A stretch of 64,000 nucleotides of DNA from Azolla caroliniana (taxonomy: Eukaryota > Plantae > Polypodiophyta). The stretch is taken from NCBI GenBank assembly GCA_043228905.1, contig JBHGNT010000016.1:14384001-14448000 (forward strand), read 5' to 3'. The number at the start of each line of letters is the position of its first letter. Position 1 is the stretch's first letter. Of the stretch, positions 1 to 59,061 are shown in pieces. The notes under the pieces are model-generated. The model was not told the DNA's origin, searched no databases, and saw only the letters and a program-made list of their open reading frames with translations. The position numbers and the translations under genes are program-made.

Positions 1-3000
1 GGTATGTGCCAAGAAGGGGAAAGAGGTGAGATTTCCGGCCATGACGATCAACTGTGTCCTTAGCGTCTCTGTCAGCTTTGCTTGACTTCTTCTTCCACTT
101 CAAGCACGCCCATCCGTCCCACATGGACTACCGTAGCCTCCCGGTCTGCCATATCCATCGTATGCTCTCAAACCGTCGGCTCCATCTGATCCACCATACT
201 CGACGGAGTTAACTGAACCACTGTCTCTGCCCGATCCGCCAGACCCGATTTTCGCACACCTCTCTTCGGCTTCCTTCGTTTTCCACCTGCGACCTTGGGC
301 CGAGTTCTCGTTCTTCTCGACTGTTTGTCGGACATTGCACCATGTGCTCTTCATCCACGCTTGTCTCGCCTCGGCCGCTTCCTCAACTCGACACTGTGAC
401 ACGCTAAACTTCGTCGTCGGTCATCCTTGTGCTCGTCGCTCGGCCCTTACGCGGCCACATCGCACGTCTCGCACTCCGCTCCGCTCTATGTACCCTTTTG
501 AAAAGGTACGTTGCTTCCCCGACATCTGTGTCGGTGCTCTCGTCTTTGGTGTCCTCCACAACCTCCGATGTTGCCGCTTCACCCCGAGGTACACCCTCTT
601 GGTCCGCCTCGTATGTCCTCCGGATGCGCTCCGGATCTCTCCGATCGCACTCTGGTTTCCGCCCTTTGCGTGCCGCTCCTTTGGTTTTATCATCTCCGCA
701 TGCCGAACACCTCGGTGTGTCGACTCTTCCTGCTCCGCGCTTGCCTTCCGTAGGCTCTTCCCGTGCGCCGATGTTGTCCCCCGAACATGCGCTCATTCTT
801 TCGCCCTTAGGCGACCCCATTCCGCGTTCCTTGCTTCTCCTTTGCCCACCGTGCTCTCTCGCCGTAGAGCGTACCGTCATCCCATCCTCCATGTCGGTGT
901 CCCTCGAGGCTCTCGTTACCGCCTCGCCTCGACTTGCGCCCTCTTGGCCCGCTTGGCCTTGCATGCCCTCAGGGAAGCCGTCGCGTTTTCTCTCCCCAGT
1001 GTGTACCCCGTTGTTCTCCGCACACCATCCTTCGCTCTCGCCACCCATCCGCCAATCCCGGCATCTCGCCGCTTCATCTCTCGTAGTGCTTTTGCCTCTC
1101 AAAGGCTCGACCGAACCGTTATCACCGGTCACTCGTTGTGGCTCATCCGAATACATGCTCGTTTCTTGGCCCTCGAGCGGCTGTAGAGCATGCTCCGTTT
1201 TACGCCGTAGTGCATACTTCGTATTACGCGCCTCATCCGCCGTAGACCCGACCTCTGCGTCGGACTCTTCGTCCTTCGTTGCCGTAGTCCCTTCCGACTC
1301 CGGCTTGCCGTCTTGACCGTGCTCGTCTGTCTTCACGGACCGGGTACCTGTTCCAGTAGCCTCGTCCGTTCCGGTCTCCGACTCCTCGCCGCCATCCGCC
1401 GTCTCTCCATTCTTATGTTGATCCGTAACCGCCGAAGTCTCTAGAATAGGCGGGGAGGGTCCTACGTCGGTCCCAGCCTCTACGTCGGTCCTCTTGTATA
1501 TGCCCATTCCGGGCCTCGAATCCTCATCTTCGTACGTGTTCGCTCCAGGCCATGCCTCCTCACGGCCACCGTCCTTCTCTCCGGTCTTATTTTGGCATTC
1601 GAGCGCATCCGCCGTAGTCTCCGGCCCCGGTGTCGAGGGGTCTCTCCTCCGTCCGCTCTGACCTTCCTCGTCGTCGTTTCGATTATCTGCTTTGCCACCG
1701 CCACCCTCCGTCTCTTCGGTCTCACGTGGGCTCTCGGGACCGACCGCCGAAGTCTCTAGAATAGGTGTGGGAAAAGTCTCGGTACCATCACTCGTCGATG
1801 TCATGTTCTTAGCCACCTTCGTTCGGACGCCATGGTCCGTGGCTATCTCTTCCTCGTTCTCCTCGTCGTCTTCTCGGTTGCCTACCTTGCCACCTGCACT
1901 GCCCATCGCTAGGACAGAGCGTCTAGGACCGGTGTGGGTAGGGACCCGGCACCACCGCTTCTTGTATCCGTAGCCGCCTCCGTCCAGACGTCGTTGTCCG
2001 TGGCTACCCCGCCTCCGATCGTGCAAGCCTCGATTATGCTTACCGCCATCTCCTCCATGTCGTCGTCTCGGTTGCCCGCCCTGCCGCCGCCACCGCCCGT
2101 CGCTCTACGTCTCAGGCTGCCGGAGCCTCTAGGGCTGGTGTGTGTAAGGTCGTGGCACCGCCACTCGTCTCCTCCCCACTCGATGTTTCGGGCTGCCATG
2201 TCCCGAATCCGTAGTTACCGGCCTCCATGGTCATCCCTTCACCGCAAGGCAAGAGGGTCGCTTGTTCCGCACCCTCTCCCATGTCGTCGTCGTACGCTCT
2301 CCCGGCCTCCGTATAGGCCCCGTCTTCTACGCTTAGGGAGGCTTCTTCCTCCGCATCCTCCGATCGCCTCCAACCCGACTCCATAATAAGCCCTTCTTCG
2401 GCTTCGATTTTCCCTTTCACAAGCTCGCATGCCTCCTGTATTAGCACTTCTAGGTCGAGCTCCTCCGAACCGTTTTGCGTTGAGCTCTCTTCCGGCGGTA
2501 GTGCGTAGTCACTCGCCGCTCTCTCTTCTCCGCCGCTCGCGGGCCGTTTTGTGGCCGACAGCCTCGCATCATGTTGCCAGCACACCCATTCCACCTCAGA
2601 CCACTCCTCGGTGAGACCACGTACTCCGTAATCATCTTGAAGCTCGAATAAGATGTCCATCCTCTCCTCATGATGGACCGTCTTCAAAAATAGGAGGACT
2701 TTGTCCGCCCCCACCGATCTCCGTTCCCACTTCGTTCACACTCAAACTCTCGGAATGCCTCCATCGCGTTCCGATGGCGCTCCATCGACGCCACCCATCG
2801 GTCGAACTCATGCTGACCTCGCCCATCCGGTTTTGCATACCCGTACGCTTCCAATAGGGCTCCCTCAAAGGACACCCACGACTCATGAGCTTCTCGTAGC
2901 TCCTTGACCTCCTTGTGCACCGATACGGCCGCCACTCGAGGAAAATACTCTAGTCGCATCGCCTCGTCCACGCCCCCTTTCACCATCTCGGCCTTGTAGG

Positions 3001-3226
3001 CTCCCCACAATTTTGGGACCTCATTCCCATTGAACCGGCCGACTCAATCGACCACCCTTTCGATGGCTTGTTGAGCTGCATCTCGCTTCGCCATCTTCCA
3101 TCTGGCTTCCATCACGATCTTTGCCATCATCTCCTCGAAGTCGAAGTCTTCTTCCATCTCCATGCTCCCTTGCCGCCCTTCATGTCGGGTTCACTAAAGA
3201 TGTTGAAAAGGCGAGCATTACGGAAC
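1..3226 (-). mobile_element. G1: degenerate Gag-only non-autonomous Ty3/Gypsy LTR element (3' end outside window, 5' LTR almost entirely deleted)
   Basis: PBS-like TCATGTCGGGTTCACTA at 3180-3196 matches the G2 PBS with 2 mismatches. Minus-strand ORFs are homologous to the G2 ORF (YKAEM, DKVLLF, GLTEEW, PILETSAV). Bases 1-10 match the G2 pre-PPT sequence GGTATGTGCC. Confidence 0.8.
100..3163 (-). pseudogene. gag: Frameshifted Gag-like protein with long acidic low-complexity tail (G1)
   Basis: ORFs 2684-3010, 2112-2714, 404-2026 and 100-402 are collinear with the G2 protein. No PR/RT/INT motifs. Confidence 0.7.
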
Positions 3227-3228
3227 TT

Positions 3229-5134
3229 GGATATCCAAAGTGAGCATGCAACTTGGGCGGTGTTCGGAAAGGCGCTTCTTGCTAAATACATGCTTGAAGA
3301 CGCATCACGACATACGCTCATGACGTGGATCGAGAAGAAAGGGAAGAATATGTGTGCGTCGGGAGTATATGTGGAATTCGACCAAAAGTACAACCGACTT
3401 CTGAGTGTTGCTCAACGAGTTCTCGATGGAGATAAAGTCCTACTATTCTTGAAGGCAGTGGATGCAAAAGATCGGCGAGAATTGGGCAACTTTTTGAAGG
3501 ACGAAACACAACTAAATGGCCTGGTAGCGGACTGGGCGATGGTGAAGAAGGCTTGTAGCCGTCTTGACAAGCGTCGTCAATGGCAAGAGGAAACTGATAT
3601 GGAGAATCCACAATCGTGGAGGAGGAAGGCACCTGTGATGATTAAGTCTAACAAGCCAATCAACAATTTGGACAAGAAAGCGATGGAGGAATCTATAATC
3701 AAGGAGCTCTCCAAGAAGTTTGAAGCGGTATCGTTGGCCAACTTAGGTCGACGTGGGCCGAAGGGAAAAGAAGTGTATAGATGTGTGTGGTGCGACAGTT
3801 TCGAGCACTCACGAAGGGAGTGCACTGACTTGCAAGACGCGATTCGCAAGAATGTCGTCTATTTGGACGACAACATGATCCACTTGAGTGAGACCCGAAA
3901 GCCACTACGAGTGAACTTCGGAAGAGGCGGGCCGAAAAAGATCGTGGAAGAGGAAGATGCAAGGCATGTGGAAGCCATGCACTACGCCGCATCGGCGGGA
4001 ATACGAGTCGGAAGAGAGAATCTAAAGACGATCAAGCCGGGAGTTGGGGTTTGGCCAACGGTATTCGAGTGTGAAAAGAAAGGAAAAATAGATTTGGAGG
4101 ATCTAAAACATGTTGATCGGAATGTGCGACGAGTTACCGGATGGTCGGATCCAGTCGACGATAACACAAGCTTTGCGGAGGTTGTGTGTGACAACTATGA
4201 AGCTCTTGTTGAAGAGAAGAGGAAAAGAACCAGTGAAGAAGATGGCACATCAAAGCATCACAATACAAGGAATGCAGGGAAAGAAGGACAAGCCCAACCT
4301 ACGCCACGAAAAGAGATAGGAGAAACAAGCATGAAGCCCGGTGGGTCAAGGAAACCTTCTCGGATGGAAGTCGATGAATCTATGAAGAAAGGAAAGGAAC
4401 GAGTGGCGCCGACATACAAGCTAAGATCGGACATAGAACAAACAACCAACTTGTGGAAGGTTCTTGAGGAGAAGGTTTTAGACAGTCATGTCGACCTTAC
4501 TTTGAGAGAGCTACTTGGGATCGCTAAGAAGGAGTTCCACGATACTATCGTGGACTTGATTAAGCGGAAGCGGCAACAATCGGATGAAGAAGAGGTGAAA
4601 ACAAGTGCCATAACCATGGCAAGATCCGAAGATGAGGAGGAAGAAGAAGTGATGGACGACATCCATTACTCTCGGCCTCATTGGGCAAGAGCGACAACGG
4701 CGACGCCAATGAAGATCGGAGAGAAAAAGGAGACCGTGGTAGCCTTGATTGACCATGGTTCAGAGATCAACCTCATGTCGACCGAATTCTACAAGAAAGG
4801 AAGATGGCCAATCAACAGAAATCACGGATGGAAGATACGAGCGGCAACGAAGGCCACGAAAGACTTGTACGGAGCTTGCCCCAATGTTAAAGTCACAATT
4901 GGAGATGTGGAGATGGATCAACACTTCTTCGTGCAAGACTCGGGTTCAAATCCCGTCATCCTAGGACAACCATATATCACATCGTCCCGGATGGAGACTA
5001 AGGTGTTCGATAATGGAGTGACCTTCGTGCGAGTCAAGAGCCTTGACAATCAAAGATCTGTTCAATTCCTTACGGTGCGGGCTAATCACGAAAGGAGTAG
5101 AGATAGCCTTGGAGGCGAATCCTCGGATTTTTAG
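3229..5134 (+). CDS. gag-pro: E1 Gag-protease (N-terminus lost)
   Basis: Zinc knuckle CVWCDSFEHSRREC; aspartic protease ALIDHGSEINL and VILGQPY. The first ~50 aa of ORF 3068 are antisense G1 sequence. Confidence 0.85.
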
Positions 5135-8100
5135 AGCAGACTATTGAAGCGTGGGGCACAAATAGTCTGAGCAATCATAAGTCCCCACAAGGAAGCGAAA
5201 TAAGTGGATCGCAAGGAGAAGCAACATGTGTGACACCTAGTGGCGCATGTAAACTTACACTACTCAACAAGAAGGACAATCATCGGATACAAGACTTTGA
5301 CAAGATGCTGAAAGAAGAAAGCATAATCGAAGAAGAAGAATTTGTGTCTCATATTCTAGAGGAAGCCTCATTTAACGACACCATCGGTGAAATTGAGGAA
5401 GTCGTGGACTTGAGCTACCCTCACGATCAAAATGTGATTTCGGTTAACTCCGTCAACATGTACACTATCATCGATGAATATCATCGAGGCATCTTGATGG
5501 AGGAAGTTGAAGTCAACACAAAATATAAAATAGTGGATAAGAAGATCAAGCCAGTTGTGGTTCCACTACCGGAAGATAGCTGGCAGAAGATGAAAGAAGT
5601 TGCGAATGATCTGAGCTTAAGGGATCCAAAGGCAGTAGGTCATGTCTTCACCAAAGAGACGAAAGGGAAGCTACAAGTTGGAAGGGAAGATTTCCTTCTC
5701 CCCGAAGAGGAGAGAATGTTCCGCGGAATGATTGAGAGACATGGGAAAGCCTTTGCCTTCTCTCCACAAGAGATCGGATGTGCCGACCCGAAGATGATAG
5801 AGCCGATGGTGATTTTTACGGTGCCACATGTACCTTGGAACCTCAAGCCGATACCGGTTCCAAGAGCTTACATTCCAAAGTTGATTGAGCTTCTAAAGGA
5901 AAAGGTTAGGATGGGAATTTTTGAGCCATCTAATGCTCCCTACTCTAATAGATGGTTTACGGTGCCGAAGAAGAACGAGTCCTTACGCTCTATACAAGAT
6001 CTCCAACCCGTCAACAAGGTGACGATCCGAAATGCCGGAATTGGTCCAAGCGTGGATGAATTTGCCGAAGCCTTCATGGGAAGATCGATCTATTCCATTG
6101 GAGATGTCTACTCGGGCTATGATCAATTTCAATTGGGCGTCGATAGTAGAGACATAACGACAATGAGGATGCCGATCGGGTTGGTAAGGATGTGCACCTT
6201 ACCCCAAGGTGCAACAAATTCCGTAGCCCACATGGTGAATGCCATGAATAAAGTGTTGAGGGATTGCATCCCCGATATCACAATGCCCTTCTTAGATGAC
6301 ATTCCAATCAAAGGATGCTTGATGGAAGAGAAAGATGAATCGAAAGATGAAGATGGTTGTGGAAGACTCGTCATCGATCATATAAAGGATAGCGAGAAGG
6401 TGTTGCAAAATCTCACGCTTTCGGGAGAGAAGTCTGCATTCGGTCAACCAGAAATATTGGTAGTAGGACACTTATGTGGGTCTTATGGCCGGAAACCATC
6501 TCCATCCAAGGTGAACGCTATTCAAGCGATGAAACAAGAATGTGTGTCTCAAACGGAGGTCCGTAGATTCTTGGGAGCATGTGCATTCTATCACATATGG
6601 ATTCCACATTATGCCCATGTTGCTGAACCATTGTATGGACTACTAAAGAAAAGGAAGAAGTTTGAATGGGAAGATGAGCATACCTATGCAATTCGAAAGC
6701 TAAAGAAACTATTATTGGAAGCTCTAGCACTGCGCAAAGCCGACTACACCGATGGTACCCCGATATATGTGACGGTGGATACGAGCCCAACCGGAATTGG
6801 ATGGGTGATAAACCAAGAAGACAAAGAAAAGAATCGGTATGCAATCCGATTCGGTGCGAAGGTGTTAACCGAAAGACAAAGGAAGTATGCCCAAGTAAAG
6901 AGAGAGTTATGGGGAATAGTATCCGCGGTTAAAACCGACCGTGACTACCTTATAGGAACAGAGGTCATAATGGAAACCGACTGTCTACCTATTCTTGGAA
7001 TGATATCCGGTTTTGCTAAACCGGATATTGCTATGCTGCGATGGATTCCCTATATCAAGTCCCTCAACCCCGAGATTCGGCATATAAATGGAAAGCATAA
7101 TGTGGTGGTCGATATGTTGTCAAGGGCAAGGTATAAGGGTGAAGAAGATTTGAACTCCGACGAAGAGGATGTTGGCCTAAACTTCTTTACGGTTTCTTGT
7201 GCTCGGGTGCTAGTAGTGTTCAAAGTGGAAGATGATGACGGTGAATTCATCGAAATTGGAAAATACTTAAGCTCTCTTACAAAAGATGAATCATGGTCAA
7301 AGGTAGACTTCTACCGAATTAGGAAGAAGGCCTACAAGTTCTTCCTCAAAGAAGGACATCTATGGAAGTTTCCGAAGAAGAAGAATGGAACTCCACTTCG
7401 AGTGGTGTGCAAGAAATAGGATCAACAAACACTAATTGCTGAATTTCATGATTGTGTGTGGGCAGGTCATCACGGTATATGGGCAACATTTGCAAAGCTC
7501 AAGGAGAAGTATTGGTGGCCGGGTGTTTACAAAGATGTAGCAAGCTATGTTGAAACATGTGAGCAATGTCAATTATACTCGAATATTCAACATAGGGATG
7601 AACTTCATCCGACATATCCATTATCAATGCACTATAAGTGGTTGGTAGACATAGTGGTTATGCCAATGGGATTGGGGCAAATGAAATATCTCGTGCTAGC
7701 AAGAGAGGATCTCACCAACCAAGTAGAAGGACGGGCACTAAGGAATAAAACAACTTCGGCGGTTTGTAAGTTTCTCCTTAAAGATGTTATTTGTCGATAC
7801 AGATGTGTCGGCAAAATAGTAGCCGATAGGGGAGAACTAGATGCAAATGAAGCTAAAGAGTTCTTTTCAAGAGGACATAGTCCGATTGTAAAAGCTCTAG
7901 CAAAGGCTTGCGACGACAAGATGGGGAATTGGTCACGATTACTACCTTATGCATTGTTGGCAGATAGAACTACACATAGCATGACTACGGGATATATGCC
8001 CGCCGAACTCATATTAGGACAAAAACCAATAATGCCTATTGAGCAAAGTGTTGCTTCTTGGACATCTTTGCCATGGCAAGAGGAAATGAGTTGGGAAGAC

Positions 8101-8505
8101 TTGCTAGCCACGAGGATTCAACAACTAGAACGGAGGCCCGAAGATGTCGAATTGGCAATAGAACGATTGCGCCAAGCTCGATTGAAGAACAAGGAGAATT
8201 TTGATAGAAAGCATCGTCTTTGACAAAGAAAAATTGAAGAAGGAGATTGGGTTCTTGTCTATGATAGTAGTCTCGATAATCAATATAGCACTACTCAGAA
8301 GTTCGCGAAACGATGGTTTGGCCCGTACATGGTCAAGAAAATAGAAAGCAATGTAACCTATTTTTTAGCGGAGTTAGATGGAACTCGACTTGCTTTGCCA
8401 ATAGCAGGGAAGAGGATCAAGATCTTTAAGAGAAGAGAGGCCCCAAATCTTGAGATCGAAGCTCTAGATGATGTATCCTCGAACATCGAGGTTAAAGAAG
8501 AGTAA
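5107..8505 (+). pseudogene. pol: E1 RT-RNase H-integrase, in -1 frame to gag
   Basis: RT motifs LPQGATNS and FLDD; RH VTVDTS and ETDC; INT HHCC, DIV, ADRG, WFGPY. Stops at 7417 and 8221. Comparison with E10 shows a deletion in the INT core (EFFS-RGHS). Confidence 0.9.
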
Positions 8506-9493
8506 TTAAAAAAGAGGAACCTTACCACAATTGGCACACTAGTGGATGTGCAAGTTTGGTGGGTGTGAATGTCGTGTGGTTTTTCACACACAATATGAAA
8601 ACTAGTAAAATAATTATTTAATATTAGCTTAATGTATTCATATAGATAGGTGTCTTCAAGATTTTCATAGCGTATTTTACTACGCATGAAACGGATAAAC
8701 AAGTATCAAGCTATGTGAGTGTGAAGTTTGAAGAAGAAGAAAGAAAAGACAAAACTGTGAGTTATCCCATATAGATAGGACAACATTGGAACCCAGGATA
8801 TATGAATGTGTGGAACACAGAATGTTCAAGGTGACTTGGGCTACATTGTTTGGTGTGCACGCTTCGGGCATACGCTGTCGTGCCTTTCGGCTCCGGATCG
8901 TTTGCGTGAGTCGGGTGGGAACCACCGGGGTTTTGGACTAGGAGAAAGAAGAATATGAGATGAGGCTAGTAATGAATAGATTATTAGAAAGAGAGATAGA
9001 AATTTCGTGAATCCCACGAGTGTATTGTATTCGATTAATCAATATTTAGATAAGAATATGTATTTAGATTGAAAGAAAGATATAAGAAACTTGTGAATCC
9101 CACAAGTATAGATTATATTATTTTCGTGAATCCCACGATTATATTAATCGGTTGGTGTTTTCGGAAATATATCCAATTTCCAAATATTTCACACACCTAT
9201 TACATTGTGCTCCCCATCCTTATGTAGTGATGGGAGAGACTAAGCATAACTACATGCTTTTTTTTTCTAATATGTTCATGCACACTAAATGTGCATGTAA
9301 TGCTTTTCTAATCCTTGCTTTTATTTGCTAAATATAGTGCTCATGCACGCTAGATGTGCATGAGTCACTTTTTAGTTGCTTGCGTTTTTCTATAAAATAT
9401 TCACGCACTCTAAAAATGCATGATTTACCTTTTAATAAAGGTAGGCGCAAATAAAGCAATTATAGTTATTAAATCTATTTATAGAACACTAAA

Positions 9494-9565
9494 GCTAAGG
9501 TAGCATAATGGTAAAGTTGAGGTTTGGCTACGTGGAGGTACAAGGTTCGAATCTTGCCCTATGCA
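9494..9565 (+). promoter_or_regulatory. tRNA-derived Pol III A/B-box cassette in G2 LTR (second copy 12352-12423)
   Basis: A box TAGCATAATGG (9501) and B box GGTTCGAATC (9544) at tRNA spacing, with TTTT downstream. Cloverleaf is degenerate. Confidence 0.7.
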
Positions 9566-9961
9566 CATGATAAATATTTTGATATTCTTATTTTATTTAT
9601 TTATATGTAATTAAATCGGTTATATTATTTTTACTTTTTCACGTAGTGTACGAAATACACTACGACACTCGCCCCCTCCGAACCCGCACATCCTCCGGTA
9701 TGTGCCGAAGTTGCCGATGCTCGCTGTCTCCCCTTCATCCTCTGTTTGTCCCGCTATGTCAACTTTGTCTCTCCATTTTGAGTAGACCCATTCTTTCCAC
9801 CCGAACCATTGTCGCCATCCGATCCACCATATTCTTTGTTCTCTCTCGTCATATTCTTGGCCCTTGTCATTCGTGGTAGTGTCTTTTACTGGCCTCTTTC
9901 TTGTCTTCATCAACCTTGACTTTTTTCCGGATCGCTCTCGTCCGATCGACTTTCGGTATGA

Positions 9962-11695
9962 TCAGCTTCCGATCGGATTCGTATTCGGCCGAATCGGAAT
10001 CGGTTGTTCGGTTTCGATTGAGTCGGTCTCCTTCCGGCCCGGTTTCGATCTATCGGTTTCGGTTTCGGTTGGCTTTCTTTTCCTCGTTTTCACCAGCCTC
10101 GACCGGTCCAACCTTCGGTTGAGTCGGATTAGCTTCTTTCCGGATCGGTCTCGTCCCATCGGCTTTCGGCTAGGTCGGCTTCCATCCATATTCGCGTTCG
10201 GCCAAGTCAGACTCGGTCGATCGGTTTTGACCGATTCGACCCCTTTTCGGGTCAGCTTTCTTTTGGGTCGTCTTTCGGCCGAATCCTCATTCGCCCGGTT
10301 CGGCTTTCGTTTGTGTCGTCTTTCGGCCGAATTCTCTTCCTTTCGGTTCGGCTTTCTTTCGGGTCGACTTTCGGTCGAATCCTCTTTTACCCGGTTAGGC
10401 TTTCTTTCGGATCGGAATCCCGTCCGGATCACCTTCCATCCGAACCGGCTTCCGACTTTACCTTTCTTGCCGCCACCTCCCATCTCTCCAGTCTCACGTT
10501 GGTTCTCGGACACAACCACCGAAGTCTCTAGGATTAGTGGGTAGGAATCCTCGGTATTATCATCCTCTGTCATTTCAACCATAGCCTCCTTCTCGGCTAT
10601 CTCTCCGTCGTATGAATCGGCTTCGACCTTTGTTTTCTCTCCACCACCTTCCGTCTCTTCGGTCTCACGTTGCCTTTCGAACGCAACCGCCGGAGTCTCT
10701 AGAATCAGTGGTGGAGAAATCTCGATATGGCCATCCGCCATTGATTCGTCCATAGCCACCTTCGATTCGATGTCATCTTTCTTGGTGACCTCCTCAATCA
10801 AGTCCTCCTTGCTCTCTTTCACTGCATCAATTATGGAAACATCAATTATGCTTACCCCTTTTTCACCCGATGTTTCAATCACTTGTATTCTGAAATCTTC
10901 TTCTACACTTGGGTTATCGGCCTTATCCTTCGTCGTTGCTCTTTCGCAAGACAAGAGGGTAGCTTGTTTTACACCCTCTTCCGTCGCACCATCATGTTGT
11001 ATTTCGGCCTTCATATCGGCTCCATCGTTTGTCTTCAATCGACCATCCTTCATCGGCCATGTCGTTAACAAGATTCTCATCTTCCTCTCATCATGTCTCC
11101 GGCATACCCTTTCGACTTTGGCCCAATCCTCGGTAAGACCGTTCGCACCGTCATCGTCTTCGAGTTCGATCCCGATGTCCATCCTTTCTTTTCGATCGAT
11201 CGATTTTACGAACATTAGGACTTTATCCTCCCCCACCAATCGTTGTTCCCGCTCCGAGAGTTGAGCAAGAGGATGCTCGAACTCTAGGAATGCTTGTGTT
11301 GCACTTCGGTGGGTCTTCTCCGATGCCACCCATTCGTCGAATTTTCGCCGATCTTGTCCCTTTGATCTCTTGTAATCATATGCCTCTCGTAAAGCTTCTT
11401 CAAAGGACTCCCATGTCGAGTTTTGTTGTTGTATCTTGTGGATTCTCTCTTGTAGTTCGTCCGAGGCCACCCGATTGAAGGATGTCACTTGCAATCCTTC
11501 CGGTATCCCACATCGTATCATCTCCGCCTTATATTCACGTAGGTAGCGTGACACACCCTTACCGTTGAATTCCCCGTTTCGTCGCACAAGCCGCTCTACT
11601 GCCGCCGTGATCTCCGACATCACTCGTTGTTCTTGTAGCATCCGATCGAACATCATCATCATCGTTATGCTCATTGCCTCTTGTTGATTCTCCAT
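9962..11695 (-). CDS. gag: G2 Gag-like protein, 577 aa from ATG 11695, with acidic then basic tail
   Basis: Capsid-like region aligns to E1 Gag (EDKVLMFVKSID vs GDKVLLFLKAVD; NGLTEDW vs NGLVADW). No zinc knuckle and no pol. Confidence 0.8.
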   Translation of the reverse strand: MENQQEAMSITMMMMFDRMLQEQRVMSEITAAVERLVRRNGEFNGKGVSRYLREYKAEMIRCGIPEGLQVTSFNRVASDELQERIHKIQQQNSTWESFEEALREAYDYKRSKGQDRRKFDEWVASEKTHRSATQAFLEFEHPLAQLSEREQRLVGEDKVLMFVKSIDRKERMDIGIELEDDDGANGLTEDWAKVERVCRRHDERKMRILLTTWPMKDGRLKTNDGADMKAEIQHDGATEEGVKQATLLSCERATTKDKADNPSVEEDFRIQVIETSGEKGVSIIDVSIIDAVKESKEDLIEEVTKKDDIESKVAMDESMADGHIEISPPLILETPAVAFERQRETEETEGGGEKTKVEADSYDGEIAEKEAMVEMTEDDNTEDSYPLILETSVVVSENQRETGEMGGGGKKGKVGSRFGWKVIRTGFRSERKPNRVKEDSTESRPERKPNRKEENSAERRHKRKPNRANEDSAERRPKRKLTRKGVESVKTDRPSLTWPNANMDGSRPSRKPMGRDRSGKKLIRLNRRLDRSRLVKTRKRKPTETETDRSKPGRKETDSIETEQPIPIRPNTNPIGS

Positions 11696-11712
11696 CTCCT
11701 TGCCACCCGCCT

Positions 11713-11729
11713 TCACGTCGGGTTCACCA
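11713..11729 (-). promoter_or_regulatory. Primer-binding site complementary to the tRNA-Trp 3' end
   Basis: TGGTGAACCCGACGTGA starts 4 nt after the 5' LTR and matches the recalled plant tRNA-Trp end UCACGUCGGGUUCACCA. Confidence 0.8.
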
Positions 11730-12525
11730 ACTGTGTCGTGCCTTTCGGCTCCGGATCGTTTGCGTGAGTCGGGTGGGAACCACCGGGGTTTTGGACTAGG
11801 AGAAAGAAGAATATGAGATGAGGCTAGTAATGAATAGATTATTAGAAAGAGAGATAGAAATTTCGTGAATCCCACGAGTGTATTGTATTCGATTAATCAA
11901 TATTTAGATAAGAATATGTATTTAGATTGAAAGAAAGATATAAGAAACTTGTGAATCCCACAAGTATAGATTATATTATTTTCGTGAATCCCACGATTAT
12001 ATTAATCGGTTGGTGTTTTCGGAAATATATCCAATTTCCAAATATTTCACACACCTATTACATTGTGCTCCCCATCCTTATGTAGTGATGGGAGAGACTA
12101 AGCATAACTACATGCTTTTTTTTTCTAATATGTTCATGCACACTAAATGTGCATGTAATGCTTTTCTAATCCTTGTTTTTATTTGCTAAATATAGTGCTC
12201 ATGCACGCTAGATGTGCATGAGTCACTTTTTAGTTGCTTGCGTTTTTCTATAAAATATTCACGCACTCTAAAAATGCATGATTTACCTTTTAATAAAGGT
12301 AGGCGCAAATAAAGCAATTATAGTTATTAAATCTATTTATAGAACACTAAAGCTAAGGTAGCATAATGGTAAAGTTGAGGTTTGGCTACGTGGAGGTACA
12401 AGGTTCGAATCTTGCCCTATGCACATGATAAATATTTTGATATTCTTATTTTATTTATTTATATGTAATTAAATCGGTTATATTATTTTTACTTTTTCAC
12501 GTAGTGTACGAAATACACTACGACA

Positions 12526-16479: not shown

Positions 16480-17185
16480 TGTCACATTCTAGACTCGAAC
16501 CTCTAACTTTTAACACACACAGTACATTGTCTTGTGTTAACCATATGGATACTCTTGTGAACTGTCCACATTCGATTGTGAACTTGTATATATTGTAGAG
16601 TCTTGTGTATAGTACATTCGAGAATATTCTAGTTGTTAGTATATTCTAGTAGCCCATTCATGAAATACTTAGTATTAAAGTTAATACTAACAAGACATGA
16701 ATAAGTGTTTGTGAGATTAGGGTAAATCAAGCCTAGATCCCTGAACTTATGGTAATAGCATAGGGATACAACGTCGTCGGTACAAAAATTTGCACTTGCA
16801 CTCTGTGAGATGACCCTCTTACACATAAAACAAAACAATAAGTAAAACAAAAAACACTTATACATGTATATACATACATGTATCATATTACATGAACACT
16901 TGTTTTCACTTGCACAACTAAACACACATTTGCACATAAGCAATATAGCCATGTACGTGTGTGTTGAGAGACAAGCTCAACATTGGGTGCATAACCTAGT
17001 GCGTAGATTGGGTGCGTAAAACCATACACAAAATATGGCCATAGCGGTATGTAAACCGAGAGGCCGTTGGAATGTTATTCCTCGTAAGGAATAATTTTGG
17101 GAGAAATGTAGGATGCTCATTTATGAGCGGTCAAGTACTGTAAGTACTTGTTTCAGCCCAATTATCAGAGCTTGTATAAAAGGTT

Positions 17186-23980: not shown

Positions 23981-25034
23981 GAAAGGAACAGTAGTGACTG
24001 TGATGCCGAATCGGCTGAAGAATTCGATTTCAGCCAGCTGAAGAAGCCGAAGAAGAAAACAGTGGTCGTAATCGCAAGGAAGAGTTGAAGAAAGCCAAAC
24101 AAAGGGGAAATACAACCAAGAAAGGCGTAAAGGCCAAGACCAAGACATGGTCTAATGTTGTGAAGGGCCTGAAAATAGAAGACGAATTGGAGACAGCCAA
24201 TTCGAGCGAAAGTGGAATTGAATCGAAAGTGACTGATTCAATCAAAATGTTCGATTCAGACATTACAAATGGACTAAGGGCCATGTGGAGGAAAGTGCAG
24301 CGAAAGAGGCCATGTTTTAAAGAGGGGGAGTATGTTACGGGCATGACCATATAATATCGCGTGGTGAGAATTTACCGTAGTATTCTATACACGTGGATAA
24401 GTATGAGGGTTAAACGAGAGTGTAAAGAAGGGGAAGGTTACTTTTAATCCTCGGGATTGAGACAACCCATTAGGCCAAGTGTGAACTTGCCTGGGGGCCT
24501 TGGGTATCGCTATAAATAAGAGGCCTAACTACCCTCATTTGATCATCTTGTTGACTACGTCAAGACTCTGTCTTGTGGTGGGTCAACTCTTGTAGCGAGC
24601 GCGCTAGCACTAAGTATGACTCGACGCCACGGTGGTGGTATGGGACACCGATCGAGGCTCTAGTCCGTCTCGATCCCTTCGCTCGGGGGTGGTCGGGTGG
24701 ATCAACACCTTTCTTTCTCTCTCTCCTTTCTATCTAGATCTATATTCTATCCTTATCTAATTCTTACATTAGTTCATGTCTTTAACAAATGCTATCAGAG
24801 CTCATTTTCTAATGTTTCTTTTGTTGTCTTTTGTGTTCTTGATTGATGGCGATCGATCTATGTGCGGTCGGCCTTCATGCAGACAAGGATCAACAAAGGA
24901 ACTTTGGTAATCTTTCTTGTTTTTTTTTGTCTATTTTTTCTTCTTCCATCTAATCATGTGTATGGTTAATATGTAGATTTTTTTCATTAATTGAATGATG
25001 TTGTAGTGGTAATTCATTGGTTGTATAAAACATT

Positions 25035-30880: not shown

Positions 30881-33083
30881 TAAAGAGGGGGAGTATGTTA
30901 CGGGCATGACCATATAATATCCCGTGGTGAGAATTTACCATAGTATTCTATACACATGGATAAGTGTGAGGGTAAACGAGAGTGTAAAGAAGGGGAGGAT
31001 TACTTTTAATCCTCGGGGTTGAGACAACCCATTAGGCCAAGTGTGAACTTGCCTGGGGGCCTTGGGTATCGCTATAAATAAGAGGCCTAGCTACCCTCAT
31101 TTGATCATCTTATTGACTACGTCGAGACTCTGTCTTGTGGTGGGTCAACTCTTGTAGCGAGCGCGCTAGCACCAGGTACGACTCGACGCCACAACGGTGG
31201 TATGGGACGCCAATCGAGGCTCTAGTCTGTCTCGATCCCTTCGCTCGGGGGTGGTCGGGTGGATCGGCACCTTTCTTTCTCTCTCTCCTTTCTATCTAGA
31301 TTTATATTCTATCCTTATCTAATGGTTACATTAGTTTGAACATGTCTCTAACAACAAGGGAGCTGAGAAGGGCTCCATGAGCAGACAAGCCCACTGGAAG
31401 GGTCAAAGCAAGCGGAATCAAACGAGTTGAGGAGCGTGAGCGAGGCATGAAACCAAGAGAGGCCAGAGCGAAGATGCGGAAAAGCATATGGAACCTCAAG
31501 TTGAGCTTGAGGGGGAGTGTTGAGAGACAAGCCCAACATTGGGGGCGTAACCCAGTGCATAGATTGGATGTGTAAACCGAGAGGCCGTTGGAATGTTATT
31601 CCTCGTAAGGAATAATTTTGGGAGTAAATGTAGGATGCTCATTTATGAGCGGTCAAGTACTGTAAGTACCTCTGTCAGCCCAATTGTCAAGGCTTGTAGA
31701 AAAGGTGCTCACTGAGCACGAAGTATGTACAGAGAACATACAGAGAATTATTTTGAATATAGTTTCGTTTTCTTCTCTCTCTGTCGTTCCCTCTCTTTCT
31801 CTGTGATTTTTGTGTTTTACCAAACTATCGTGCTTCCGAACCGTGTACTCAGTGTCTATCGCATACGCTTCCACACACGTATTCTTTTACAGTGTGCACA
31901 TAAATGAAAAATAAAACAAGTGTGCGTATAAATGGGGTCTACTACCCATAATAAGGGGTATCACTAAGCTAAAACCCACGTTCTCAAGAGGGGTGGAACG
32001 ACGAGTGCTTCAAGTGGTATATTATTCACCCCCAACCATTCTTCAAGAATGCCTTGTCTCTAGTTCAGGTTCTCATTGGTTCAACTCGACATTCACACAC
32101 GCACACTACATAAATTTTAGCGACATCTTTGGTAGTCTATCAAGGAAAGAATTATAGGAGAAGATGAATGGAGTAACAAATGAAGAATAGTCTGATGATG
32201 ATCAAGCATGTACTTCAGGAAAGACCCTATAAAATGAGAGTCTATTTCTATAGAGATAATGGTAGTGGTGTCTCTTACTATTTAGAGGCATTTAAGGAAG
32301 AAATGTACATGAAATGTATACCTAAAGTAAGATAATTGGCAAGCTTCGTAAGAATGGTGACAACAAGAATCCAAAATTGAATTCTTAAAATACATGGTGG
32401 AAGATGGTATTGTCACAATGCATGCTTACCTATAAAAAGGGGCATGAATCTTGTGTAAAGTTTTATGTACATGGAACGTTAATATATAAGAGTTTTTGTA
32501 TACAATACCCTTTTTGCAACTGATCTATGTCTGTTAATTCTTAATAAGTTTTGAATCGTTGTGATTATCAACCGATCAACAGTGTCGCCGATTCAGACTC
32601 TTTGTGTTTTGATTGACTCAATTGTAGCGATCCATGTCTAATTACAAAATACTATTTGTTAAGTGTGATTTTTATGCTATTCCCATCCCTCCTACCATGA
32701 TCTTTGTTGAAGGGTACTCAGTGGTTGAGTATTTGATCCGTGCTTCCTAGGGAGTAGGAACAGTGTAAAAAATATTGAATGTTGAACCCAATCAATAGAT
32801 AAAGAAGAGTTTTTATTAAAAAACCAATGCATGAATCACCTCATTTATGTATTGAACTCTTCCATCAACCAAATGCACTTTATAGGTGTGATCACTTATA
32901 GTGGGTTGTGATCCAAGTCCGTGGATTCGCACACACCAGCATGGAAGAATCCCGTCGGTGGGCAGGGCGGGCGCGTCTATGGATTCCCCATATCTTAATC
33001 AAACGAACATTTACAAAGTTATGTGACCTTCCTGAATCAAATAAGAACTCTATTAGAGAACCATTGGTATACCCATTTGCACG

Positions 33084-35291
33084 TGTCAGGTCCGAGCGGG
33101 ACCACCGGGATCTTGAACCGGGGAGAGATGAGTTTCTGAAAGGTCGAATCCCTCGAAGCCGGTTGCGAGATTTTGGCCGAATCGGTTCCAGATGTTGTTC
33201 GGGAACAACCGATCCGGACACGTTCCAGATCAACCGGAATGCGTAGAGGTAGAGTGCGCTCATACGCATACCCATAAGACTTTCATAGTCGTATATACAA
33301 AAGGCCCGAAAGATGTAAGTATATACATATATAAATATGCGAACGACGGTTCGGTTCATCGTATGCGCGCGCACACACCCGCACACTAGGAAGGACAGAA
33401 CCCCAACACACTGGACCGAACGCAGACACAAAGGGGTCTCAGGATGCTGCTCTGAGACCCGACACTTCTACACATACAACAGACACACCCGTCGAGATGA
33501 ATAGAACACCGACGCTCCATGCAGGAAACACGCACACACATGTATATATATATATATATATATTATTATACAAGAGATGTTACAACGCCGGCTAAAGTCG
33601 GTTCTAACACAGAGACAAAGAGGGTGCCTACATCCCAGAACCAGTCGGGGAGCTCATGGGGGCTCGCCAGAACGAAGGGAGTCTCGTGCAGGGTACACCT
33701 CTTCCGAAACAGCAACCTTTTGCCGCCAAGCCGCCAGTTGGGGAGCACTCAGGTTCCCCTACGCGAGTGGGGATCTTGCATGGGAGAGAGAGAACCGAGG
33801 ACCAGTGCCTCCGAGCGTGTGGGCTCACCATGAAACAGTAACGGAAGCAAAAGCAAAAGCAAAACTGTAGTAGAGACGAGAGGAGACAAGAAGAGGAAAG
33901 AATAGAACAGAACATGAGAGAGAGAGAGAGAGAGAGAAAGTTGAAAGCATATCTACGGAAGGGAGTACTAATGTGGCAATTTTCTTAATTGGAGCAAGTG
34001 GAAATCCTTTCCTCGGTGGAATGTTCGTCTTGCCTATTGGCAATTCAACATGTTCCATTACCCCTGTAGTGTAGTGTAGTGTGGTTAGTGGGTGACCATA
34101 CTTCATGGTCACACCCATTGTAAGTAGTGTTTTTTAAACACATTTATTAATATAATTGTGTGTTTTCACCCAAAAAAAAAAGAGTGTTATTGATATATGT
34201 CTCCTTCCTAAGAACCTGGGTATTCATACATTGAAGCACAAAGTCTCTATGTGTTAGTAAAGCATACACATATGAGCTCAACCTTCTAGGTGGTGTCTTA
34301 AGTATGGCACTTAAGTTATCACTCCCTCTTAGTATGTCAGCATATCTTGAACGAATTGCACTATATGTCAAGCATGTGAAGAGCAAGTGACATTCATCCT
34401 CTACCATGCCTTCATTGCATACTTTACATGCCGTCAAATTCGTTACATTTTGATACCATGATGCAACTTCAATACCTAACTTGTGAGATCGAGTGCAAAG
34501 AGTGTAAGGGCTCTACGAGCATTACTACTCATATTGGTAATGAGATAAGGCTGGATACGATCAATAGACATTCTTGCTTTATATTGAGACCAACAGGGTT
34601 GACATTTGCAATGTAGTATTCTAGCTTTGTTCTCTTAACATCCTCCCATTTCATCCTTAATGATTCCGCCAACCTTTCCTCAATCATTACATACTGCATA
34701 GCATTGCCCGAAAGCTCTAAAAGATCATCCACACCCCATCTTCTAAACCATTTCCTTATGTCAACAACCCAACCAGATGAGAGAATCTTACTTTTAATAT
34801 GATTCTTGTGTAGCTTACATCCAACATTCCAAGGAAGATGTGGTAATCGATGATTCGACATATTCTTGACTTTTGTAATGTATTTATATACTCTTTGGAG
34901 TGCCAATAGTTCTATGGGTCGAACACCCGTTTCCAAGAGCATAACCTAGTAAGAGGTAGTGCATTTAACTCCTAATTGCCTCCTTAAAAACATCTTTTGA
35001 ATTTTCTCAATCTCGTTCCATACATTAAGAGAGATGGTGCCACCCCATACTTCTACTCCTTTACACGGGACCCTCCATTCCTTTTATAGCACAAGGAAGG
35101 AGTGGCGTAACAATGTGGGATAAATATCCCCCATTTCGAGGGATACTCTCCCCGGCTTTCATTCTTATTTGGCGCTTTAAAGGCACCCACTATTTCTGTA
35201 CAATCTTTACAAGAGGGAGTGCACACGGTGCACTCCGCCGATATCACCATCTTCCCCGGTTTTCATACTGTGGCCGGGAATCTTAATGTCA
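33084..35291 (-). mobile_element. Probable solo LTR (~1.2 kb) containing a LINE insertion
   Basis: TG..CA ends; ACG(T) duplication of the target; TATAAAA on the minus strand near 35085 followed by a CT-rich tract. Confidence 0.6.
34066..35060 (-). mobile_element. 5'-truncated LINE 3' end with CCHC finger, 3' stem-loop and (CACTA)n tail
   Basis: GVEVWG, LLETG, CKVC..EDECHLLFTC; hairpin 34090-34116; GTAGT repeats 34066-34089. Confidence 0.82.
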
Positions 35292-37520: not shown

Positions 37521-38126
37521 TTATCTTGGGTTGGACTAGCCACAACACAGGGTGTCCCTCCGGAACACTTCATCAAAAGGTGGTTGAGGGAATGATGTTA
37601 TCCAACACGAATCCGATTCTATCCAACTAATTCCGAATTGGTGGTGGCCTTTGTCTGCACTTCATATTCCAGTATTTTGGTTTGGTAGGTTGTTTGAACC
37701 TTCTCCAAAACTATCTTTGCTCATTCCGTTTCCTCATAATGCTTTGCGGTGAGTTGCGTCCTTTCCCTCACCACTTCGTCCATCATTTGTCCCATGGATG
37801 CAGCCATCATCTTCTATTCATCCGCCAACGTCTCCATCTTCTTTGCAAATTCCGTCCGGACCTCCTTCAATTTTTCTTGCTGCTAGTCGAAATCCGACCC
37901 CAGCTTCTTATGCTCTACCTCGAGTTGTTTATGGTCTCGGTGCAGCTTTTCAAAATCCTCCATTTTTTGCTTGAGACGCTGGTTTATTTGAGAGCACGTT
38001 GTTGTGATGTTTCCATGCCACGATGAGAAAATAACCTCTACCAATTTATATGAGCTTATTCAAATCTTTGTAAAAGGTTATATAGAGTGTGGGGCCTCGA
38101 TGAGTAGGAGCGTGTGGGGGTTTAGG

Positions 38127-38472
38127 TGCCGTGAAGGATTTGTTGCACGATAGAAAAATAAACTAAAATATTATATTGAATAACATTTGAGAGACTTGAA
38201 CCCACAACCCCACATACCAAATACAAGGCATATACCATTAGGCTAGGTCATTTTAATGTTTATACTTATGCCATGTATATTTTCATACATGAAAGCTCAA
38301 ATCAGTGGGATGTCTGTCATGCATCACATGCATGTCTTGTACCCTCACATGCATCATATGCATGGGGGCACCTATTTAAAGAGGGAAAGGGAAAAGAGTG
38401 GGGAAGAAGATGAGACGAGGAATATTATTGTAATAGGAGGGACAAGCTATATTATTGTACAAGAAATATTTT
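38127..38472 (+). repeat. Truncated LTR (U3 half) related to the E10 LTR
   Basis: Starts TGCCGTGAAG after a G-rich tract. Shares TATACCATTAGGCTA and ACCCTCACATGCATCATATGCAT with the reverse complement of 59420-59610. Confidence 0.65.
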
Positions 38473-40015: not shown

Positions 40016-40618
40016 GGCCGTTAGTGTTCAATACCTTGTCTTCTGGAAGGGTTACTCCTTATCTAGGATTTACAAAATACTTTGGAGGTGGTCTAAGATT
40101 TTCAAGAACAATATCCCCTTATGCCAACGACCGGTTTGGGAAGGCAGCGTAAGAGGGGGGATAATGTCACATTCTAGACTCGAACCTCTGACTTTTAACA
40201 CAGTACATTGTGTTGTGCTAACCATATGGAAACTCTTGTAAACTGTCCACATTCAATTGTGAACTTGTATATATTGTAGAGTCTTCTGTATAGTACATTC
40301 GAGAATATTCTAGTTGTTAGTATATTCTAGAATTATTTTGTGGTATATTCTAAAAGGGTATATTCTCGAATTATTTTTGGAGTATATTCTAGAGATATTG
40401 AATCTCAAAAATTGTATAAATACTTGTAACATCCTTGGTCCCTTTCAAGGGATTCAACACTAGTCATTGACACACCAATCTAGTATTCTTGTTTCATTCC
40501 ATCTTCTCTCCTTCTTCATCTCTGTTTTCATTCTCTTATGTCGTTCCTAGCTTCTGAAGTTCCTCATAGCCTTGTCGTTTGTGCTCCGTCCGAGTCCGCG
40601 CTTGGCATGTCTGTGACA

Positions 40619-41523: not shown

Positions 41524-42731
41524 TAGTCGATCTTGTCGAGTGGGTAGACATCCATTCCTTGCTGCTCGGCTGTGAGGATTCACAGATCACCATGCATGCC
41601 AAAAGTGTTGCCGGTTAGGAAGACGGCCTACCCTCGGTCCTTCAGGTTAGGTATCAAGGTGATCATGGTGCAGTGTAGGAATTTGTGTAGCGCGTGGAGC
41701 GTAGTGACTTAGAGCGTGTTTACTAAAGGTGCAAAACTGGAGACAGCTACAACCGAGCTCCTAATGTGCGTAACCACACAACACATATTCATCTTACACG
41801 CTTATGCTTATACAATCACACAAAGACAACAAACAACAGACAAGAGATAAGAGACAGAACTCAGATAAAACTGAACATTAAACGATTGTCCTCATAATTG
41901 CGCTAGCTCTTTACAATGTTCATATGCCCTTTATATACACAGGGCCTAGTCGGTTACACTGCTTGCATGAACCGTTAGACATGTTACTTCAACGCTTCTA
42001 TTATAATTAATATGCTTCTTTATCATGTGTTATTTACGTTTGTCCTCTTACGGCAGACAACACCAAGCTCGTCTTTTACGACATGTCATCTTGCGCATCT
42101 CTTTGCTAGCCTGTACTAAGGAAATAGTACCACTAAGTCGCGACACTTTAAGTTGTCTATACAAATCTCTACATTCCTCATCATACCACTTGTTCGGTGG
42201 CATAGACCCTGTCATGATATGGCAAGACTCAAACCCATGACCTTATGTTATATAGGTCGAGCTCTTGACCATTATACCATCTATTGTAATACATAGAATA
42301 TTATTTTCATTTAAGTTTTATTACAGGAAATTAATGAATATTCCAGATTTCTCTGGAACATTCTAGAAGCTTTAGGATTACTCCTGTGAACACTATAAAA
42401 GAAGGCACTAGGCATTATTTTGAACCAAATTGGTTCAACGCCAGTCTTAAGCCTCATAGCCATCTTGTACTTACTCTTCCTATAATATATCATCTGTTAT
42501 CATCATCTCTCTCTCTTTCTCATCCTCACTATCTCTCTCTCTCTCTCTTCTCTTCTCTTTCCTCCCTCTCGAGAGTCTTACGCAGTCCCGTCCTCCTAGT
42601 ACTAATAGTACTTCCCTTCTCTAGTACTAATTCTCTCTTTGTTTTAGTACTATTCCTGACAGTTTGAACCAATTATTCCTCTCTAGTCTTTCTTTTGGTT
42701 TCCCCCCATCCTCTTATCCTTTTTCTATAGA

Positions 42732-57340: not shown

Positions 57341-59061
57341 GAGATAGTGTCATGATATGGCAAGACTTGAACCCATGACCTTATGTTATATGGGTCGAGC
57401 TCTTGACCATTATACCATCTATTGTAATATATAGAATATTATTTTCATTTAAGTTTTATTATAGGAAATTAATGTATATTCCAGATTTCTCTGGAACATT
57501 CTAGAAGCTTCAGGATTACTCCTGAGAACACTATAAAAGAAGGCACTAGGCATTATTTTGAACCAAATTGGTTCAACGCCAGTCTTAAGCCTTATAGCCA
57601 TCTTGTACTTACTCTTCCTATAATTTATCATCTGTTATCATCATCTCTCTCTCTCCCTCGTCCTCACTATATATCTCTCTCTCTCTTCTCTTCTCTTTCC
57701 TCCCTCTCGGGAGTCTTACGCAGTCCCGTCCTCCTAGTAATAATAGTACTTCCCTTCTCTAGTACTAATTCTCTCTTTGTTTTAGTACTATTCCTGACAG
57801 ACCCTATTCTACAATGATTGGAGTGTTTCGTGTATGGGAAGCTACTAATTGTCGTTGAGTGAAGGATGTGTGCGAGTTTTGTAGTGAGGTTCTCTAAAGG
57901 CAAGGAAGAATCAAAAGAGGAGAGATGGGCTTGAACATGTCGAGAGTAGATGTCAGCAAGCTCATGCATGAAATGTATTATGGTGTGATGGTTTGGTTGA
58001 TTAGAGTTGGTGGCGTGGAAGGTGTCGCATTTTAGCTCAAAGTATACAAAGTTATGGTCTGCACCAATGGGGCATGGGACCACCTGGAAGGAGTTAACCA
58101 TGTGGGTAGCTTCAGGGAATCCTATGAGGTAATCACCTGTGCTTTTCCCTCCTCCATGTGGGAAACATGTGAGCTCTTCCGAGCCCAGCCACTTGGCTAA
58201 GCCATTATATATGATCATATGGTGTCAGCTTCCAAGTTCAAGCAGATGATGGCCAAAGCTTGTGGCATCCGCACCTTGATCCTTTGATGTACGTGTTATG
58301 TCTAAGGCTAAAGGGTCGACATTCACCATTTCTAGGTTTCTATCCATCTAAAATATTGTGCATTATCGGGATTGGGTTCTCGCATTGAAATCTCCTTCAA
58401 GGAAGACTTCCCCTTGAGAAGAATATTGGATTACGTCATCCGATAAAGGCTCGTATGGAGAAGGCCCATGTGGCGTTCCTTCATCAACTACACTCGCCTC
58501 TCCAACCATATTATACCAGGATCCTTTCGGGGGGAAGTAACAAACGGCAATAAATATCGCTTGATCCTTGCTAGTGAGGACTTTCACCCACATAAAACGG
58601 GCTTCTGGGTCTGTCTTTAGTATTTCTATCCTATTATGTATCTCTCTCCGAAATAGTATCGCAACCCCTCCAGACCCTCTAGTAGTGTGTCGACGTGAGG
58701 TTTGTCTAAAGACAGATTCCCAACAAAAACCGTCAACTCGTGGCAGTGCTCGATTTGGACTCTAATGTGTTCTCCTCTAGATGGCCAGGGTGTGTCCAAA
58801 GTGCACCGTTATAGTTCCATAAAGTCATCCTGAGTTTATTGTCTGTCACATGGGCCACATGCCATCAATTGACGGCGCGATCATTTATTATCAGACGTCC
58901 GTCTCTGTAAAAAGCACAATGCCCCTCTCTACGAGCTTGTATGACTCACGGCATACAAGTTTTACGATGCTCAATTTGCATCTTGGTCAGGTCTTCATCG
59001 AGGTAGATAGGGTCCCTGCCCAATCCTCGATAGAGAGAGACAGAGAGAGAGAGAAAGTATT

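Follow-up and report, generated by a model that had tools for sequence, protein, structure and literature searches.

The LTR nest and its tRNA-like cassettes

The window (the whole 64,000-nucleotide stretch of Azolla caroliniana DNA that was analysed) is a nest of LTR retrotransposons. One of them, G2 (8876-12525, minus strand; 3650 bp), is a Phygy-type element without pol, whose two LTRs (5', 11734-12525; 3', 8876-9667; minus strand) are 99.9% identical and which has a tRNA-type primer-binding site (PBS) at 11712-11729 and the 4-bp target-site duplication (TSD) ACGC. In its 3' LTR, a tRNA-like cassette was found at 9494-9554 on the plus strand, comprising an A box (9501-9511), an AGGT motif corresponding to tRNA positions 44-47 (9536-9539) and a B box (9544-9554), with 32 nt between the two boxes and TTTT following at 9577-9580. 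A sequence-only reading had described A and B boxes at tRNA spacing, then TTTT, antisense to the element, and this was indeed seen on the plus strand at 9501-9580 of a minus-strand element (44.3 bits with a weight matrix; nhmmer E 9e-5). An identical copy lies in the 5' LTR (12352-12412, also given as 12359-12412; plus strand). In four sequencing runs, the bins of the G2 cassette were covered like the neighbouring LTR bins, and the LTR of G2 is 79% like that of the pol-coding locus L031. A stop-free minus-strand frame of 644 codons with a gag-like front occupies 9962-11896, and no Pfam match was found for it. A broken relative of G2 (404-3200, minus strand) stands head to head with the gag of the element G1 at ~3197, with no LTR between them.

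G1, another Phygy-type element, served as a negative control: the start of its 3' LTR (8570-8875, plus strand) holds no cassette, nor does its family (L006/L008). The pol at 5107-8508 has Riccia proteins as its nearest named relatives (47-64% identity) and matches of up to 90% in metagenome assemblies. Phygy is described as a bryophyte non-chromovirus Gypsy group marked by a 4-bp NCGN target (PMC6317226), which the ACGC duplication of G2 fits. G1, G2, the element E10 and an LTR starting at 38000 were assigned to Phygy from the TSD ACGC and because the closest named relatives by pol are from Riccia. Just ahead of the polypurine tract, Phygy elements have a short inverted repeat that is conserved (window 9668-9710, 8530-8569 and 59759-59800, and most loci).

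Cassettes were also found in an element of a different Gypsy lineage. E7, which carries pol and a chromodomain (Chromo E 1.8e-8), is a self-priming chromovirus of Tcn1 type, with a PBS complementary to its own LTR and the 5-bp TSD GACCC; self-priming and a chromodomain are likewise given for Tcn1 (PMC6317226, PMC2864245). Its cassettes are on the minus strand and antisense, at 42225-42279, right where the 5' LTR (42210-42661) begins, and at 57363-57417 in the 3' LTR (57348-57799), in agreement with the minus-strand cassette previously placed at 42222-42283. E3 was also assigned to Tcn1 and is self-priming (TSD GTATG); no coding region was seen in it, and its 5' LTR is interrupted by 21.8 kb of nested elements (16650-38469). 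For E3, the B half of the proposed cassette held up (17-18 bits), but its A box is poor, its spacer measures 35-39 nt and the matrix missed it; this weak cassette lies on the minus strand at 16491-16551 in the 5' LTR, and its B half recurs at 40174-40212 (minus strand; nhmmer E 0.12) in the 3' LTR (40165-40618).

The two remaining carriers are Phygy LTRs. In a truncated LTR of the L045/L046 family, a cassette of 51 bits was located on the minus strand at 38192-38245, antisense; the cassette had been noticed correctly, but the LTR start had been put at 38127, whereas homology to L045/L046 places it at 38000. The cassette therefore sits 193-246 bp from the LTR start, beyond the ~175 bp claimed as the limit for all such sites. 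This LTR stops abruptly at its joint with the E3 nest, suggesting a deletion. The E10 LTR (minus strand, starting at 59758) holds the expected plus-strand, antisense U3 cassette at 59594-59647 (35.8 bits), whose B box is decayed and is intact in the sister family L015. A second E10 cassette at 59283-59337 (minus strand; 44.3 bits), which had been overlooked, lies in sense orientation downstream of the TATA box, so the claim that all cassettes are antisense to their element is incorrect.

Cassettes exceed chance and occur in Gypsy LTRs of the window

When textbook A and B boxes (at most two mismatches from the consensus) were searched, seven pairs were found in the window, a number that includes both LTR copies per element, against a mean of 0.25 and a maximum of 1 in 60 shuffles. 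A weight matrix trained on 23 non-redundant cassettes, all from metagenome loci outside the window, gave 34.7-51.0 bits for seven window sites, 12.6 bits for one coding site and at most 10.6 bits in 30 shuffles. Five of the eight Gypsy LTR families of the window carry cassettes, E3 being included as weak, and these comprise both chromovirus (Tcn1-type) and non-chromovirus (Phygy-type) LTRs, as had been suggested. No cassette was found in the Met-primed Gypsy LTR, the G1 LTR or six Copia LTR stretches of five or six families, the last in line with the earlier observation on Copia, and the profile detected none in an LTR-like stretch below 62652. Two further minus-strand LTR-like stretches (33400-33960 and 41750-42100) have neither a partner in the window nor a cassette. 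A perfect A box with no B box beside it lies at 24467-24477 in the Met-primed Gypsy LTR and at the matching place in the LTR at 30897-31354 (minus strand); by chance alone, 64 kb should hold a few such A boxes.

The E7 family was examined for the possibility that the cassettes are sporadic insertions absent from most copies. Contigs from four runs with four organism labels had numerous distinct flanks at 57348, and joints that bypass the cassette reached a depth of at most 53 versus ~1e5-1e6, a negligible share. One run presumed to be RNA behaved as DNA. Of the five variable box positions listed for the E7 cassette, four (57, 12, 11 and 9) vary within the consensus, with G10A outside it; among the positions listed, one of ~16 strict positions varied versus ~2 expected, a within-family test that is weak alone.

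The conserved positions match a TFIIIC footprint

The cassettes are not tRNA genes. ARAGORN found no tRNA in the window or in 21 loci, and Rfam gave no tRNA match. In an alignment of 29 non-redundant cassettes (two being half copies), none of the stems paired above the level of row shuffles (anticodon 43% vs 44%, D 48% vs 50%, acceptor 42% vs 39%) and no covariation was seen, and a tRNA gene was rejected. The information per column was instead concentrated in the B box (1.42 bits), positions 44-48 (1.29 bits) and the A box (0.97 bits), as opposed to the anticodon arm (0.37 bits) and positions 63-73 (0.17 bits). At tRNA positions 44-47, A44 was kept in 79% of the 29 cassettes, G45 in 93%, G46 in 100% and T47 in 93%. 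The boxes stand at class I tRNA spacing; with 20-60 nt allowed, 33 of 69 distinct pairs had a spacer of 32-33 nt.

Seventeen homologous pairs, which are not independent, gave the same picture: 173 of 187 strict box positions (93%) and 59 of 68 AGGT positions (87%) were identical, compared to 293 of 459 spacer positions (64%) and ~70% in the flanks. The earlier idea of a recurrent LTR module is supported; it is fixed within families, and its boxes have changed less than the spacer and the flanks. Box conservation is partly circular, in that the boxes served to pick the cassettes. AGGT is the least circular signal because it lay outside the seed filter: it was unused for the 23 seed rows, although it was part of the matrix that added the remaining rows.

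One explanation is that the cassettes are neutral relics, that is, tRNA-derived SINEs or tRNA pseudogenes that landed in LTRs and have since been copied without function. Such relics would account for decayed copies, of which E10, E3, L020 and L044 provide examples. Moreover, a flanking direct repeat of at least 8 nt was found in 8 of 27 cassettes versus 8.5% of cross pairs, one of them 11 nt long and not of low complexity; most of these repeats, however, are A/T- or A/G-rich or stem from tandem duplication. Decay is also uneven, as the above identities of boxes and AGGT versus spacer show, and the stems are randomised while the spacing is almost free of indels. Furthermore, no shared 3' body or tail was detected (0.17 bits). 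We consider neutral relics improbable as a full explanation; insertion may explain the origin of the cassettes, not their upkeep.

In yeast, TFIIIC contacts a base upstream of the B box, with G45A altering binding 5-fold; changes at 44-47 affect both binding and transcription, and the A box is needed to position TFIIIB (parts of PMC11724288). The retained pattern of boxes, spacing and AGGT matches a TFIIIC footprint. On these sequence grounds, host TFIIIC probably binds the cassettes. A-B distances of 30-60 bp are described as tolerated by TFIIIC (10.1101/2023.05.16.540835, in part), so the fixed spacing of 32-33 nt is stricter than binding alone requires. Two other tRNA letters, U33 (69%) and A38 (76%), are also kept; they are not promoter positions, and docking of TFIIIC leaves their retention unexplained. 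Several cassettes can form a shifted hairpin pairing about 30-34 with 44-47, which may reflect only residual tRNA letters.

Cassettes point away from the TATA box

With one site counted per family and position (n = 25), 15 antisense and three sense cassettes lie upstream of the TATA box, and six sense and one antisense downstream of it; for L071 and L025, in which the TATA box is beyond the contig or not located, distance from the LTR start decided the side. Antisense sites make up 16 of 25, so an antisense position at the U3 start does not hold as a strict rule. A better description is that cassettes point away from the TATA box, which applies to 21 of 25 sites, with four pointing towards it (nominal p 0.0009, inflated by shared ancestry). 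The 45 nt upstream of cassettes are AT-richer than those downstream (76% vs 67%). Given the predominant direction, TFIIIB would load on the TATA-facing, more AT-rich side. Many Phygy LTRs, and also the Tcn1-like LTR of L014, have palindromic CATGCA-rich blocks between the cassette and the TATA box (window 38310-38370, 59417-59520 and 9270-9420; L014:3980-4060; L015:1010-1125). These blocks share short matches across lineages; we take them to resemble RY elements bound by B3 factors.

The carrier elements are transcribed by Pol II: they possess a TATA box and measure several kb, and the sense strand of the two coding elements examined for T-runs has 13-22 of them. The cassettes themselves might nevertheless be working Pol III promoters, with antisense RNAs, short ones or read-out transcripts, that would tune the element or the DNA next to it. 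The A box has kept its tRNA spacing and matters more for TFIIIB loading than for TFIIIC binding, the upstream side is AT-rich with TATA-like words in 17 of 27 cassettes versus 12.4 in shuffles (p 0.06), and U33 and A38 are partly kept; the G2 cassette would yield an RNA of ~90 nt ending at its TTTT. The T-run after the G2 cassette, however, is not conserved across cassettes. TTTT within 34 nt downstream occurred in 13 of 27 versus 11.3 expected, the CAA start motif in two of 27 versus a 16% background, and no shared RNA fold was found, with folding z below -2 in five of 27 and -0.25 for the G2 cassette. In the 3' copy of E7, the first T-run is 931 nt away. Moreover, cassettes occur in both orientations and B halves have been duplicated alone. 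The outward-facing Pol III RNA that had been envisaged is thereby weakened for want of a conserved terminator, start motif or fold, and we judge Pol III promoter function rather unlikely.

Orientation also bears on the idea that an antisense copy in the genomic RNA pairs with the primer tRNA and aids strand transfer. The bipartite PBS of Ty3 and a tRNA-like stretch in HIV-1 U3-R are precedents for tRNA pairing, and the U3 position and antisense direction of many cassettes fit. However, over positions 62-73 the 15 antisense Phygy cassettes agreed in only 27% with the primer 3' end as deduced from the PBS in the window, and none of them shared its position 62. E7 primes itself yet carries the cassette, and sense copies cannot pair. 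Primer-tRNA pairing is largely refuted for these sequences, and we give it next to no credence.

Alternatively, a TFIIIB-loaded cassette could be a landing pad attracting elements which, like Ty3, are directed to Pol III start sites. Heavy nesting in the window would suit such targeting. Insertions at most 80 bp upstream of the A box were nonetheless found at none of 10 window sites, one window being a small sample; the nearest break is ~99 bp away at the weak E3 site, and the insertion site of G2 itself is an LTR without a cassette. Attraction of this kind seems very improbable.

Distribution of the cassettes among related elements

A metagenome scan aimed at Phygy yielded 163 Phygy-type loci, of which the best 80 were analysed. 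Together with two contigs from prokaryote genomes and G1 they formed 40 pol clusters at 85% identity, 19 of them without enough LTR to test. Among the best 80 of 163 loci and these additions, cassettes were present in 11 of the 21 testable Phygy clusters and absent from 10, with one to four cassettes in the carriers; the families are not independent of one another. An HMM built from 22 cassettes outside the window matched 45 times in 535 kb, never inside pol, and the best hit in a reversed-sequence control had an E of 1.5; none of the 45 profile matches lay outside LTR-like DNA. The B half alone is duplicated in L084 and L048, and tandem cassettes occur in L041, L043 and L049. All 17 pol-bearing loci checked from cassette-positive families had a stop-free pol, indicating that the carriers include coding elements. 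For Tcn1, breadth comes from E7, E3 and three loci met by chance, L014, L071 and L025, with Tcn1-like LTR starts in their flanks and an antisense cassette near the LTR start. One Tcn1-like pol, P0155, is fused to a dUTPase domain (PF00692); dUTPase fusions are mentioned for fungal elements (PMC2864245, in part).

The 80 contigs include 70 from one accession series, and every cassette-positive contig came from those 70. None of the five loci from other sources with LTR sequence (L054, L061, L070, L080 and L085) had a cassette, and four of these five branch deepest in a quick tree. The trait may not extend beyond a set of related hosts. Three scans of viral contigs found no relatives and one found three distant loci, none carrying cassettes. 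Prokaryote genomes gave two contigs, with no LTR. L004 and L005 are Phygy-type pol loci on short contigs of two bacterial assemblies, probably plant contamination.

On the same tree, the cassette state changed by at least seven gains or losses (35 hand-labelled of 83 rows; the 'no' label of L042 was wrong), a patchy spread that neutral relics would also produce. In addition, the U3 of a single family can have or lack the cassette: U3 interiors differ between L046:4935-5593 on one side and L046:11437-12079 (L046b) and L053:6861-7579 on the other, a tandem repeat replacing the cassette. L009 and L015 differ likewise in their U3 interiors. In both sets of same-family LTRs, the first 75-80 bp and the TATA region are common and the interior is either the cassette or a short tandem repeat, which suggests that U3 modules are swapped between LTR versions of one family. 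Since 10 of 21 testable Phygy families lack the cassette and the L046/L053 family has both versions, the cassette is dispensable.

Comparison with known systems

The nearest known likeness is the Helenus group of TRIMp3 elements, whose LTRs contain a tRNA-derived stretch with boxes A and B most conserved and no functional tRNA (PMC10886601). In the portion of that paper available, Helenus elements are non-coding and 311-1263 bp long (screen limit 1 kb), whereas G2 has 3650 bp and E7 has pol. The Helenus LTRs examined bear a single sense cassette followed by a T-run and proposed to transcribe the element; among the carriers here, in contrast, are elements that have a TATA box and a stop-free pol, and the carriers hold one to four, mostly antisense, cassettes. 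By length and sense placement the carriers fall outside Helenus/TRIMp3, with which they share tRNA-derived sequence with A and B boxes in the LTR. According to the same source, autonomous partners of TRIMp3 have to rely on Pol II and are not likely to have LTR sequence in common with it. It further remarks that tRNA-like parts occur in 'not a few LTRs' of Repbase, only TRIMs having been followed up, so such LTRs may be known to curators.

Cassandra TRIMs are similar in that a Pol III promoter was captured in a plant LTR. They differ in being short and non-autonomous, with a promoter of 5S type in sense orientation, a conserved terminator and demonstrated transcription (PMC10886601, in part). 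SINE2 elements likewise have an A/B-box head of tRNA origin with the stems lost; unlike them, the cassettes have no shared body or tail, are fixed within LTRs and propagate via the LTR route. In the available text of a 2026 paper, tRNA-derived LTR regions are mentioned only for Cassandra and Helenus/Ajax (PMC13570524). The available parts of PMC6317226 and PMC2864245, large supplements aside, contain no mention of a tRNA-like or Pol III element in Phygy or Tcn1 LTRs. Subscription papers and Repbase entries aside, the literature yielded no description of coding Phygy or Tcn1 elements with multi-copy cassettes that point outward.

Closest in possible function are tRNA genes and ETC sites, whose TFIIIC-recognised boxes act without a useful RNA; tRNA genes and TFIIIC sites are reported as TFIIIC-dependent barriers to heterochromatin (PMC12409998, in part). 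The cassettes, known from sequence, share with TFIIIC barrier sites a conserved B box and upstream contact region. ETC sites have the B box only and are fixed in the host, whereas the cassettes have retained the A box at its tRNA spacing and are carried by mobile elements.

Proposed role and significance

The LTR module is real and recurrent, and apparently selected. By analogy with tRNA-gene and ETC barriers (PMC12409998, in part), we propose that the cassettes are tRNA-gene remnants that dock TFIIIC and TFIIIB and guard the Pol II promoter in silent chromatin, a role to which we assign about an even chance; of the readings considered, the insulator one put forward earlier would fit best. Host TFIIIC would read the B box and the 44-47 region, and the A box would place TFIIIB on the TATA-facing side. 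For the Pol II promoter, the docked factors would form a barrier or keep the chromatin open, which would be the selected benefit, and any Pol III RNA from the cassettes would be a by-product. The moss Gypsy element RLG1 is reported to lie in heterochromatic islands with its young copies transcribed there (PMC7466625, in part), and such islands are where a barrier would pay off. More tentatively, autonomous Gypsy elements of two distant lineages could have repeatedly captured, trimmed and multiplied tRNA mimics to fence the Pol II promoter on both sides, a history that is possible but that we would not favour.

So far, Pol III promoters in LTRs have been described in short non-coding elements and thought to make the element RNA. 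Here they occur in protein-coding elements, in numbers and orientations unfit for transcribing the element, and their footprint matches TFIIIC contacts. The U3 versions with and without a cassette in one family are a ready natural comparison. If the cassettes are barriers, they would offer a testable answer to how retrotransposons remain transcribed when they insert into heterochromatin. They would also be naturally occurring TFIIIC sites with which to study whether plants have working tRNA-gene insulators. Should repeated capture of tRNA mimics by these two lineages be true, high-copy LTRs would scatter many TFIIIC sites over the genome and act as mobile chromatin barriers that keep the elements active in heterochromatic transposon islands.
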